Translations under genes and position numbers: made by a program
Shown: in pieces, positions 6,313 to 17,620 of the stretch
How the letters are laid out: each line of letters starts with the position of its first letter
Numbering within the stretch: the first letter of the stretch is position 1
Assembly (NCBI RefSeq): GCF_963676685.1
Contig: NC_092351.1
Location: forward strand, 74,338,001-74,402,000
Direction of reading: 5' to 3'
From: Mytilus edulis
Taxonomy: Eukaryota
DNA length: 64,000 nt
The notes under the pieces: model-generated
Seen by the model: only the letters and a program-made list of their open reading frames with translations
What the model was told of the DNA's origin: nothing
The model's database searches: none

Positions 6313-6915
6313 TTCTTGTTGTACTGAAATGGTCTAATTTCATCAACACGGCTCTAACGAAAAATATAATTTAGTTTTATTCAGTTTTTGCAGTCGATTT
6401 TTGCACATTGAAGTAAATTCAAAAACGAAACAATTAATTTTAAACTAATGTAAAGCAATCTTTTGGGTTTTGATTGATTATAATTTGATCACAAATCACC
6501 AGGTTATTTGTATTGTAGTTTAAATGCACTAAAACAGTCTCGATTACAAGTAAATGAACTTACAGGTTTTCGGGTGGTTCATTCATCCTGAAATTAAACC
6601 AAGGGTAGATCAGCAAATGTTTTAAAGTATAACCACTTATAATAATACAAGTTTGAAATAGGAACATTTGTTTTTCGTCAAGATAAGACAATGAGATTAA
6701 CGAAGGAATTATTTTAATTCACTAATTACAACTCTTGTTATAAAAGCGTCCATGTGAACGAAGTTCTATAGAAAAGATCCAGTTCTTCATCTTTGGTTGA
6801 AATTCCAAAGAACGACAAAACTGACCGCTACTAGAGTTAACTGAGTTGTCATTTTTGTGTTATAAATATATCATGCCGATTGGTATACATATTGTTTTGG
6901 TATTGTTGTTATCAA
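6313..6915. repeat. Local duplication copy A (paralog of 16372-16505 + 17097-17590)
   Basis: Long shared blocks, e.g. AGTTCTATAGAAAAGATCCAGTTCTTCATCTTTGGTTGAAATTCCAAAG at about 6762 and 17397. Confidence 0.92.
6564..6587 (-). CDS. B-box gene 1, 24-nt microexon (E)MNEPPEN
   Basis: Minus strand TTTAATTTCAG|GATGAATGAACCACCCGAAAACCT|GTAAGT; phase 2-2; flanks paralogous to those of the 18-nt exon. Confidence 0.7.
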
Positions 6916-8777
6916 CGTAGGGACGTTAAGGGCGTTTCAAGAAATTTCCATTTTTTATACACAGGAAAAATCATATTGAACTCAAAGTTAGTTTCCTCTG
7001 TCTAAAGGCCAAAATGCACGTCAAAAGCGTAACCAGAGGGAAAAGGGTCTATTCTGAAAAATATTTCAAACTTTTATTTATAAAAAAATATAAATACACT
7101 AGTGTCACGTGACTTCAAACTGAAAGTAAGGACATTTTCTAAAAAAGTCAAAAGGGCAGGTGCAAGGTGAGATCGGATCTTCCTGGTTTTGAACTCCCTG
7201 TAGTTAAGATAACTTACTTCACTAGAAAAATGATGTTGCTAGTTTTTAAAAGAGGATTTGTAAATAAAAAACCAACAGAACCAGGAGATTTTTTTCCGAT
7301 TTATTGAGTTTTTGGCACTTCAGGTTGGGAAATTTCTTTTACAGAACGCTATATAAATAGGCACATCATTTTTTGCAAAATGTGCCCATTTCTACCAGTG
7401 TGTTGGTATAGCTCTTGCAACTCCCCTTTCCAGTTAATTTAACATGAAGTAGCATAAACGCCTTGAAATGCGAAAGAAAAACGTTTGAAAGACCCCGTAG
7501 TAGTAAAATCGGCTGTCGGAAAAGATAAGTGTATTTTGTTTGTACTCACAGTGAAGCGCTAGCGTTACCTTAATTAAGGACATGTTGGAGCAAATAAACA
7601 CATATTTTCTTATTGTTTGCTGAATGTATTGAAGGTTCCAATTCAAAAATGATTTTTTTTTCACACCATACAACTTTAATTGTGACAGGCTGGACTCATA
7701 AAATAGAGTACTTTCATCTTCTGTTAAGAATTTGCATTCCACCTCTTGTGTATATTTACCGCAAATGGCAGAGGCGAATACAGATGGGCTCATAGGTGGA
7801 TTCAGATTGGTTTATCAAACAATTTTTGGTTAATACAGACTTACACTTTTTTTCGCACTCAATACTTGTTTAGTGTTGGGACACGCCCCCCTACTTTTTA
7901 TCCAAATCCGGAATCCGCATCTGGGGTCCTAGTGCAGTACTTATTTTGCGAGTTCAAATTCATTGTAAGAAAATAATAGCGTACTAGGTTTTTATAGTGC
8001 TTGCTTGTGTTCTGGAAAACATTAATATTTTAATGAAAAAAGTTGCATTTTAACAAAGAACTTAATTTATACCAAAAATCAAGATTTGTTTGTTTGCTCT
8101 GTGACGTTGATGTTAAAATTATAAATATGAACTCCCACCTGCATATAAATATTTAGATTTCACTAGTTGAATTTCTTCTGTTTCTCAAGTGTGACTGGTA
8201 TTAATTTGTAACTCATATTTGGGAGGTTTTTTTTTTGTTTTTTTTTAATTCTTTCTGGTGAAGGCATGGTGATTTGTAATTGCGTCCGAATGAAAATAAA
8301 TTTTACCCGTTGCCAGGCCATTATTTTGTATGGCTTGCTTCTTTAAATTATGTCCTGGTGATTTCCTGCATGTTGTTACAATATTCCATTTCACCCCATT
8401 TGAAGCAATATTTCACTTATTCTAACATTCTAATTAGTTAAATATTAACACTGTTCTGCCCTCCTTTTACTTATTTAATTTAGTTTGAGATTTTCCAAAG
8501 CACACACCAGCAGTGACATTGGGGATTCAATTCGGTGTCCTTTGAATGAGTTAGTTATAAAATTTGAAAATGATTTGAAGCTATGGCATTGAGTTCCCAA
8601 TATTTATGCTTACTCTATACCCTAAAGTGATAATCAGTTTGACAAATATCGGATGCATATACAACTAATTGAAAGCTCATCTGTGAAAAAATCCACATCC
8701 GATTAGTTTCAGATACATTTTCCTATGATTTAATTAGAAACCTTGTCATATATATCATCTTAATTTCTTGTTTTCTT

Positions 8778-9300
8778 TGAGACAACAACCCGACCATAGA
8801 ACAGACAGCAACAGAGGGACACCAACAGGTCTTCAATGCAGCGAGAAATTCTCGCACCCGGAAGCATCCTTCAGCTGGCCCATGAACAAATATATATACT
8901 AGTTGAGTGATAATGTACCCCATACTAAATTCCAAATTATACACAAGAAACTAAAATTAAAAATAGCAAAGGCCAGAAGCTCCTGACTTCGGACAGGCGC
9001 AAAAATTGGGCGGAGTTAAACATGTTTATGAGATGATCTCAACCCTCCACCTATACCTCTATTCAATGTAGAAAAGTAAAAGCATTACAATACGCACATT
9101 ACAATTCAGCTCAACAGAAGTCCGAGTCTGATGTTAGAAGATGTATCAAAAGAAAATAAACAAAATGACAATGATACATTAATAACAACAGACTACAAGC
9201 AGTTAACTAACATGCCAGCTCCAGACCTCAATTAAACTGATTGAAAGATTATGTCTTCGTCATATGAACATCAGGCACAATACCTCCCGTTAGGTTATAG
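8778..9300. repeat. Abundant interspersed repeat family 1 (SINE-like); other pieces at about 37745-38000, 41325-41370, 49610-49780, 50830-50900
   Basis: GAGACAACAACCCGACC...CAGCTGGCCC...CTCCTGACTT.GGACAGGCGCAAA shared among copies. Confidence 0.8.
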
Positions 9301-10150
9301 TATACATCTGTACCATGAAATTGGTAATAGTGAACTTTTTTTTCTGCGGCTCATTTCACATTAAATTCCTGCCTACGAAAGTGTCCACCAATCTGCCAAT
9401 ACAAATGGACAGCCAAGAAATAGCGAAAAGTTCGTAAGTGACATTCAGCACAACCAATCAATTTTATTATCAAGTGCCATAATATTTGAAGGTTAATCTT
9501 AACATGCTTAAACATGCTAAAATCAGGAAACTTGTTTCTCCGTCACCAGCTGAGATAGGAGGGAAATGAATGGTTTTTCTTTTCTGTCAGAATAAAAGGA
9601 ATTATAGATATCAGTACTATATATTTATTATGTATGAATGTACAGGAATGACTATTAACTTAATCACAACTTTTACATATACATGTACACAATCCAAATG
9701 TTTCAGGTAAATGAATCACGACACACACGTATAGGCATATTAGGGGACAGGACAAACTATTCAGCATGGAAATTAAAATGATATGTTAATGCTCATAGAA
9801 CTACTGCCTAATAAATATCATTGACAGAGTATAATCAGTGGTTAATCCTTCCCTGACACAATCACAAAAGCTAAAACGATTTAATTGTTAGTCAAAACTT
9901 TATTGGCAATTATACCATATGATATCATCTCATTCTTGTATCAAATTATATCTGTACAACAAAAATATGTATGCAATTTCAAAATAAGAAGATAGCAATT
10001 TCTGTCTGTGTTGAGGATGCAGTCTCCTTTCTGTGCATGTCTACCTAACATGTTTGTTTAACATACTAGATACAGTTATAACATGTATACAGAATATAAA
10101 AAAATCTAACACTGTGAAAATATTCATTCACAAGTTAGCAAGTTTATATA

Positions 10151-16505: not shown

Positions 16506-17096
16506 GGTAGATCACAAGTATATATTTTTTGAGACAGAATTTTTTCATAATTTGCCAAAATGAAGATTTTATTTACTCTTTTCAAAAATTTAATAAAAAG
16601 TATGGGTCACCGTGCTATTTTTCAAGCTATGGGTCGTTGAAAATTGCCAAAATTTGGTTAGTTTGTTCATGAAAAAACACATTAGTGTGCATAAAAAGAA
16701 TTCTATGAGATAGAATTTTGAAATAAATTGTGAGAAGAAAGGTTTCATTATATGTTTTAAGAAAATAAAAAGAAAACATGGTGTCACCGAACTTGTTTTC
16801 TTGCTACAAGTAAAAATAAAAAATTTCCCTATTAGCCCAGTATAAATTTTGTACTAAAAGAGTTATTTCCCCTTAAATGGCTCATTTGAAAAAAAAAAAA
16901 TTTATACCAAAAAAATTGATATTTGTTAAAATATTTTGAATAATACGATTAATTAACAATTTGTCTTCATATAGAAAAAACAGTCTAACCATTGAATTGC
17001 AAATTTGTCTCCAAATTTGCAGATTTAGGCAAATAATTATACCGATTTTGTACTGCGATTGTGCAATCCAAGATGGCGGTATACCATGAATCTACC
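16506..17096. mobile_element. Kolobok-like MITE, TTAA TSD
   Basis: TTAA|GGTAGATCACAAGTATA ... TATACCATGAATCTACC|TTAA; absent from paralogous copy A. Confidence 0.85.
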
Positions 17097-17205
17097 TTAA
17101 AACTATCTTTTGACTTTTGATTGAATATAATTTGATCACGAAACCCCAGGTAAATTTTTGTTTTTATGCACTTAAACAGTCTCGAGAACAGGTAAATGAA
17201 CTTAC

Positions 17206-17223
17206 TCATGTAGTTTCCACGTC
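17206..17223 (-). CDS. B-box gene 1, 18-nt microexon (E)TWKLH
   Basis: Minus strand TTTAATTTCAG|GACGTGGAAACTACATGA|GTAAGT; phase 2-2, open in the frame of the main exon. Confidence 0.7.
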   Translation of the reverse strand, partial: DVETT

Positions 17224-17620
17224 CTGAAATTAAAGCAATGATAGATTAGCAAATGTTTCAAAGAATAACAACTTATGATAATTCAATTTTTAGATGGTAA
17301 CAATTTATTTTCGTCAAGATCAGACAATGAGATCAACGAAGGAATGATTTTAATTCACGAATTACAACTCTTGTTATGAAAGCGTCCTTGTGAACAAAGT
17401 TCTATAGAAAAGATCCAGTTCTTCATCTTTGGTTGAAATTCCAAAGGACGACAAAACAGACCACTACTAGAGTAATGACATAGATGTCAATCCAAAAAAC
17501 TGTGTTGTCATTTTTGTGTTGATATTTAATGTGTTATAAATATATCATCCCGATTGGTATACATATTGTTGTCGTATTCTTGTTATCAAATTTGAGAATC
17601 TAAACAATTGATGGATATTA

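Follow-up and report, generated by a model that had tools for sequence, protein, structure and literature searches.

The window analysed in this work is a stretch of 64,000 nucleotides (nt) of Mytilus edulis DNA (assembly GCF_963676685.1, contig NC_092351.1, positions 74,338,001-74,402,000 of the forward strand). Its minus strand holds a mussel gene of the RING-less B-box/coiled-coil (i.e., TRIM-like) kind with two microexons, A and B, each lying in one copy of a duplicated block. Microexon A (6564..6587, minus strand) has 24 nt and encodes MNEPPEN(L), microexon B (17206..17223, minus strand) has 18 nt and encodes (E)TWKLH(E), and both begin and end in phase 2, the frame being set by an upstream exon that ends ...TTA GA|GTAAGT; copy A is closed in both other frames. 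The two splice contexts occur exactly twice each in the window, always on the minus strand and by sequence match, the acceptor context at 6588-6598 and 17224-17234 and the donor context at 6550-6563 and 17192-17205. The duplicated microexons, their shared splice contexts, their unlike peptides (MNEPPEN versus TWKLH) and their two-codon difference in length had been pointed out in an earlier note on this DNA, and all of these are borne out.

In the alignment, the block around A spans 6317..6915 and the one around B 16373..17589 (both on the minus strand), the latter being broken by about 600 bp (16504-17097) absent in copy A, so that the paralogous segments are 6451-6915 versus 17098-17589 and 6317-6440 versus 16373-16503. 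The flanks of the two microexons differ at 32 of 328 columns upstream, 17 of 108 downstream and 23 of 124 far downstream (72 mismatches in 560 aligned columns). The earlier note spoke of runs of more than 40 identical nt; there is one such run, of 50 nt, the longest in the other two blocks being 14 and 18, and most of it coincides with a short dispersed repeat in the upstream flank (6773..6826, no strand assigned), to which 38 of the 40 scored genome matches belong and which is present in copy B too. The full-length copies of the block among these 40 matches are the two described here alone, and a mobile repeat as the origin of the pair was rejected on this ground; no bigger duplication unit was found between the two introns.

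The host gene starts with a 5′ untranslated (UTR) exon at 21740..21772 (minus strand; donor at 21740, 5′ end unmapped), seen as the end, past 21233, of the contigs from runs X1 and X2, with one letter differing, before GTAAG. It continues with a large exon (20540..21232, minus strand) present in spliced contigs, with its ATG at 21183, 214 codons for one B-box and a coiled coil, and a phase-2 intron behind it. After the microexons comes a terminal exon, whose coding part (4275..4446, minus strand, in contigs) gives 56 residues without a cysteine and has no other match in the genome. Transcript contigs from eight public runs were compared with the window, and we take them as transcripts because they are spliced at GT-AG ends, none of the runs being on record as RNA. 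In two of them (X17 record 5 and X19 record 19) position 20539 is joined to 4443 with 44 letters between, an insert equal to the prediction for complete B plus A, which gives a spliced model of 285 amino acids (aa). The letters of B were read in X17, X1 and X2, X19 giving its length only, and the X1 and X2 contigs have B then A, matching letter for letter. All four displayed contigs across the upstream donor thus carry both microexons in series, without skipping, although X1 and X2, with contigs of equal lengths and nearly equal depth, may be a single data set. Runs X18, X20, X4 and X7 have no record crossing the junction and are hence uninformative (X20 was examined to about 6 in 100), and the sole raw-read run has no depth across most of exon 1. 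The gene is already annotated in RefSeq, where XP_071127145.1 (P0099; Mytilus edulis by source name), of 285 aa, equals the model in length and tail and includes both microexons. Microexons A and B are therefore both used, in series, and make up 42 of 855 coding nt.

Some smaller observations on this gene can be added. A 60-nt in-frame candidate exon with good splice signals lies between the microexons (15853-15794, minus strand), and is in neither the contigs nor P0099. The X17 contig departs from the window at one letter of exon B (T to K) and at two among 333 nt of the terminal exon, and is identical to it over 648 nt of the large exon, all of this in a single observation; the K form is the only exon-B allele seen besides the window's own, too few for testing hypervariability within the species. 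The Logan record P0102 covers the terminal exon and departs from window positions 4278-4427 (minus strand) at one residue (S to R). Contigs from X17-X19 tile about 2.7 kb from within the terminal exon onwards (4443-1771, minus strand) at depth 3-8, which suggests a long 3′ UTR reaching to about 1771.

The 285-aa protein begins with the B-box. No RING was found among the Pfam matches for exon 1 of the window gene or for eight relatives, and the B-box matches of the large exon itself are weak (ANCHR-like_BBOX, E=0.0012, below the cut-off), but five of the eight relatives pass the zf-B_box cut-off and the family profile matches TRIM28 at 3e-20. Structural models of two relatives, P0007 and P0107, have a long helix followed by a return helix, and their heads are best matched by structures of TRIM28, TRIM72 and TRIM5, so the window protein, by homology, would have a coiled coil behind its B-box; labels such as ‘TRIM45-like’ on family proteins are those of the source database and no functional tests. 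The window protein has no RING, no cysteine knuckles, no cysteine in its tail and no known C-terminal domain. By eye, and without a predictor, no hydrophobic leader is visible at its N-terminus, and the family is likely cytosolic.

In the genome, 204 stretches match the large exon, many of them clustered on contig C8. We examined 24 genes, i.e., the two in the window and 22 paralogs elsewhere in the genome, leaving out g89134 (20 kb without an alignable tail) and keeping h73711 out of the exon-1 comparisons (its exon end was mis-set). In intact members, exon 1, which ends in phase 2, is predicted to be followed by a 48-nt exon ending in Y-x-Y-x-C-x-x-C (the first knuckle), by tiny exons, and by an 18-27-nt exon with a second pair of cysteines. 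The tail behind the coiled coil in the 24 genes is thus predicted to consist of phase-2 symmetric exons, 9-27 nt long and arrayed between two cysteine knuckles. In a frame-blind scan, among candidates of up to 24 nt, lengths that are multiples of three make up 80 of 120 on the sense strand versus 9 of 35 on the antisense, and 77 of those 80 are open in phase 2, as compared to 44 in phase 0 and 60 in phase 1. Lengths of 9-18 nt account for 74 of the 81 predicted microexons, of which a gene has at most nine within the stretches examined, and where homologous microexons are of unequal length, the difference is one of whole codons (12/15/18 nt). One paralog's exons of 48, 18, 15 and 24 nt are matched by RefSeq protein P0007. 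Of 56 database tails, 29 have the first knuckle and 12 have at least two CxxC-like motifs, many of the database models stopping directly past the first knuckle.

The tail of intact relatives is likely a zinc ribbon, judging by its cysteine pairs. In the model of P0107 it has strands at 279-283, 289-292, 306-311 and 322-330, in a block with a predicted local distance difference test (pLDDT) score of 76-90, and the microexon-coded stretch would lie between the knuckles if the exon correspondence is taken from neighbouring paralogs. The rows of the fold searches span 61-245, with the tail outside, and an Atlas search with the P0007 tail gave scores all below 0.8.

Duplication inside the gene is not peculiar to the window gene, as there are five further intragenic pairs of duplicate microexons, four of them probably from one older event. 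The paralog at C8 88944500-88984499 has two near-identical 12-nt exon blocks and its second-knuckle exon twice, one copy with a stop; these internal duplications are recent. At C8 85958000-85977999, tail exons of 48, 18 and 15 nt recur about 13 kb downstream of the first set, as a duplicated tail or else as part of the next paralog. Two genes have no mismatch in 159 flank positions in spite of a proportion of synonymous differences (pS) of 0.27 in their exon 1, and some microexon blocks have apparently been swapped between genes. Three proteins with the same head (P0164, P0165 and P0027) have other tails, either a C2H2-type pair (PF18112, precomputed) or one that we take to be PDZ-like, which suggests that tails have been swapped at the phase-2 junction.

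The window pair had been picked because it looked odd. In the best one-gap alignment, exons A and B mismatch at 8 of 18 positions and all five aligned codons change residue; seven of the eight differences are nonsynonymous, the proportion of nonsynonymous differences (pN) being 0.58 and pS, on fewer than three sites, 0.35. Compared with all flanks (72/560) the exon excess has p=0.0013, but a comparison with the 80 nt closest to the exon on either side (29/155) raises p to 0.018, or to 0.03 after adjustment for base composition. The excess in this pair alone is thus modest (8/18 versus 13-19%) and only suggestive of diversifying selection.

The family allows a broader comparison. Homologous flanks place 60 of the 81 predicted microexons in groups, the other 21 having no homologous partner. 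Pairs were chosen on one flank and scored on the other, in both directions (25 and 27 pairs, with the window pair left out, as were the 27-33-nt NEP exons with GTATG donors). The exons differ at 59/357 (0.165) and 74/387 (0.191) positions, versus 131/1961 (0.067) and 166/2086 (0.080) in the held-out flank. Their pN is 0.184 and 0.210 against a pS of 0.077 and 0.066 (Fisher 0.052 and 0.007), so that pS about equals the flank rate whilst pN is 2.4-3.2 times pS. A single joint alignment with equal gap handling gives 0.166 versus 0.076 and 0.189 versus 0.100 for exon and flank (Wilcoxon p 0.005 both ways). Base composition, with 32.5 mismatches expected and 74 observed in 27 pairs (here including the window pair), accounts for little of the excess. 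Divergence of at least 40% is reached by 7 of 27 exons, compared to 4 in 100 of 631 flank windows. The final part of exon 1 has a pS (0.066) equal to the rate of the adjoining intron (0.062; eight pairs), so the introns are a fair local clock. The two residues inside the first CxxC show a pN of 0.51-0.54 against a flank rate of 0.10-0.12 (six to seven pairs), pN for the other 13 codons of this exon being 0.08. At the level of the family, these comparisons show an excess of amino-acid change in the predicted microexons over both flanking intron and synonymous sites.

The interpretation that we consider probable is that the window pair is an intragenic tandem duplicate, spliced in series in a TRIM-like gene, and a case of a predicted family-wide tail of phase-2 microexons likely under diversifying selection. 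Since the tail exons would all begin and end in phase 2 and have lengths divisible by three, a block with one exon could be duplicated, vanish, lengthen by whole codons or move between paralogs and leave the frame intact. In intact members, the microexons would form a predicted beta-hairpin arm between the two knuckles, carried on a TRIM-type coiled-coil scaffold at the place where TRIM5 holds its target-binding domain. TRIM proteins dimerise, and such a scaffold would show two tails to a target; TRIM5 also belongs to the expanded TRIM subfamilies with a positively selected C-terminal domain. Selection would then promote novel tips, with pathogens as the most plausible driver. The window gene itself would be a derived member without the knuckle exons (a motif scan for a remnant of the first found none), and this loss may leave its own pair less constrained. 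One may speculate on the start of its terminal exon, YYNDY (4446-4429, minus strand), which is reminiscent of the 18-nt YCxxC exon of the family after a change of both cysteines, no homology being found in the flanks. The stronger form of the interpretation, in which these genes are cytosolic TRIM-like receptors whose zinc-ribbon tip is built from interchangeable phase-2 microexons, varied in the germ line by duplication, resizing and swapping of blocks and by positive selection, and largely missed by annotation, is one that we consider less likely than not.

Several results weigh against diversifying selection on such arrays. Only 19 of the 54 predicted exons of at least 15 nt have their peptide in any of the 56 database tails, so most of the paralog microexons are unvalidated predictions, and several exon classes (e.g., the 18-nt exon after the knuckle) are fairly conserved. 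For the window pair, an exon alignment with three gaps (4/16) brings p to 0.15-0.40 versus whole or near flanks, 18-column windows within the flanks reach seven mismatches, and the A-to-B exon alignment scores no higher than shuffled sequences do (P=0.16). In the family, the microexon pS rests on five to six differences, and the pairs share genes, which makes the pooled p values too small; with each gene used once there are eight pairs, with 13/120 exon and 39/632 flank differences and no p value. With the pS of the entire exon 1 in the same gene pairs as the yardstick there is no excess, with 36.3 nonsynonymous differences observed and 46.9 expected (22 pairs), which we suppose to stem from mosaic histories of the kind seen in the pair with identical flanks and an exon-1 pS of 0.27. 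Of the claims made earlier, that of an exon diverged far more than its flanks keeps its direction (p from 0.001 to 0.03) but depends on the baseline and is lost under the three-gap alignment. Diversifying selection is borderline for the window pair (p about 0.02-0.03 against near flanks) and finds its support in the family values (pN 0.18-0.21 versus pS 0.07-0.08).

Part of this could be expected under relaxed constraint, which we regard as rather unlikely, where a gene that has lost its knuckles keeps a near-neutral linker with nothing but its frame maintained, the excess in the pair being due to chance and to a flank that is slow, AT-rich or itself constrained. The tail of the window gene, with no cysteine and no other genome match, fits this, and so do the near-flank p values of 0.018-0.03, the flank windows with up to 7/18 mismatches, the lack of excess over the whole-exon-1 pS and the unevenness of the upstream flank, where 15 mismatches fall in the nearest 80 columns and 17 in the further 248. 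Neutrality, however, predicts that pN equals pS, whilst the family pN is a multiple of a pS that matches the flank rate; exon-1 pS agrees with the rate of the adjoining intron, and seven of the eight differences in the pair itself are nonsynonymous.

The contrast between exon and flank could also be one of age, if B and A were the family's ancient fourth and fifth exons (one of 18 nt, then a proline-rich one) and intragenic gene conversion had made their flanks alike, the exons themselves being spared by selection. Microexon B does occupy the position of the 18-nt exon of the family, with the same length and the same ...TGA|GTAAGT end, A is similar to the NEP exon that neighbouring paralogs have (P=0.01 by shuffling, uncorrected), the window's other family member shows the same order in its predicted exons of 18 and then 24 nt, and exchange of blocks between paralogs appears to occur. 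Against this, conversion would be required on both sides of a 24-nt exon, the A and B flanks have no clear homology to other family blocks (best score 79 and median 50, compared to 345 between A and B), and in ten genes no clear homology links the flanks of the fourth exon to those of the fifth (one z of 5.5 on one side, the others at most 2.8), which leaves such a history improbable. Alternative isoforms by mutually exclusive or combinatorial splicing of the copies, the former proposed in the earlier note, are the least credible of all. Both exons are symmetric, so that skipping either would keep the frame, and contigs lose rare variants, so that minor skipped isoforms could escape them; even so, the two copies stand together in contigs from four runs and in XP_071127145.1, the single RefSeq model of its cluster.

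A second member of the family lies in the same window on the plus strand (39355..54456), predicted from splice signals and family homology. Its B-box/coiled-coil exon runs to 40049 and is followed by predicted phase-2 exons for the first knuckle (44008-44055), of 18 nt (44543-44560), 24 nt (50962-50985) and again 18 nt (52260-52277), and for the second knuckle (54430-54456). It has the complete predicted array with both knuckles, and an exon 1 shorter than in relatives with two B-boxes. Four G-protein alpha-like exon matches, two of them with a stop, occur amid the TRIM-like genes, at 62610-62855 (plus strand) in the window and at C8 74327378 (minus), 74437988 (plus) and 74474339 (plus), and may travel with the duplicated units. 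A fusion of the window gene to the nearby G-alpha-like fragments was considered and rejected, as the terminal exon ends at 4275 and no longer homologues turned up when searched for (weak evidence). Broken reverse-transcriptase frames of the long interspersed nuclear element (LINE) type lie at 27494-31147 (minus strand; RVT_1, E=1e-28), and a probable retroelement remnant, judging by open reading frame text and repeat depth only, at about 4660-5470 within the last intron of the window gene.

Fast-evolving arrays of frame-symmetric microexons are known from secreted parasite effectors, namely those of the MEG and bicycle genes. Judging by the accessible parts of the reports on aphid bicycle genes (bioRxiv 10.1101/2020.10.28.359562 and 10.1101/2021.09.24.461719), these share with the mussel family the clusters of paralogs, microexons with long introns, internal exons almost all in phase 2, paired cysteine motifs and positive selection. 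The phase-2 character is found here in 77 of the 80 short candidates with lengths divisible by three, and at the end of exon 1. Bicycle proteins, however, are salivary effectors that are secreted and have about 5-25 microexons (same sources), whereas in the mussel only the tail is made of microexons, the protein has a B-box/coiled-coil head and no signal peptide is evident in it. A secreted protein with a CYC pair and at least five such exons is not what is seen here, the window gene having two microexons and no tail cysteine and its relatives CxxC-type knuckles, and the likeness implies no homology.

The portions of PMC10526429 and PMC4350168 at hand describe the MEG genes of Schistosoma as having, like the mussel family, very short exons with lengths mostly divisible by three (mode 15 nt), duplication and a high ratio of nonsynonymous to synonymous substitution rates (dN/dS), but as parasite proteins that are secreted, consist almost wholly of microexons and are diversified by alternative splicing, whilst in the mussel gene a 214-codon exon dominates and A and B are included together. 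The preference for lengths divisible by three is shared (80/120 sense versus 9/35 antisense); a coding sequence made mostly of 10-20 microexons is not (42/855 nt in the window gene, and at most nine predicted in the 24 genes). The finTRIM genes, as far as the consulted part of PMC2657112 goes, resemble the mussel family in their clustered expansion, B-box plus coiled-coil scaffold and diversifying selection concentrated at the C-terminus. They differ in that the mussel proteins have neither RING nor B30.2/NHL and their variable part is a small cysteine-knuckled domain coded by microexons. Of the three elements that define TRIM (RBCC) proteins (a RING finger, the B-box and the coiled coil), the mussel family thus has the B-box and a coiled coil after it, and no RING. 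Tandem duplicated exon substitution, in the available extract of PMC9741552, is like the window pair in being a tandem exon duplication within one gene; its exons are mutually exclusive and mostly ancient, whereas A and B are co-included and have diverged beyond reliable alignment. The mussel family, then, seems to combine a gene design like that of MEG and bicycle genes with a logic like that of finTRIM, and is a member of none of them. The part of PMC8382680 seen tabulates a B-box-type zinc finger orthogroup, with no gene structure alongside, and no description of this microexon architecture in molluscs was found in the literature searched, most subscription journals and supplements lying outside the search.

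Taken alone, the window pair is a modest example and one already annotated; what the earlier note lacked is that a TRIM-like gene is the host of A and B and that its family has microexon arrays as a trait. If an expanded family of intracellular TRIM-like bivalve proteins does follow the design of MEG and bicycle genes, this would be an undescribed route to diversifying a recognition surface, and the family would be a concrete candidate for receptors in an animal that lacks adaptive immunity. The many database models that stop just past the first knuckle would then be explained as well, and these mussel genes would be a host-side, intracellular counterpart of the MEG and bicycle effector genes of parasites.

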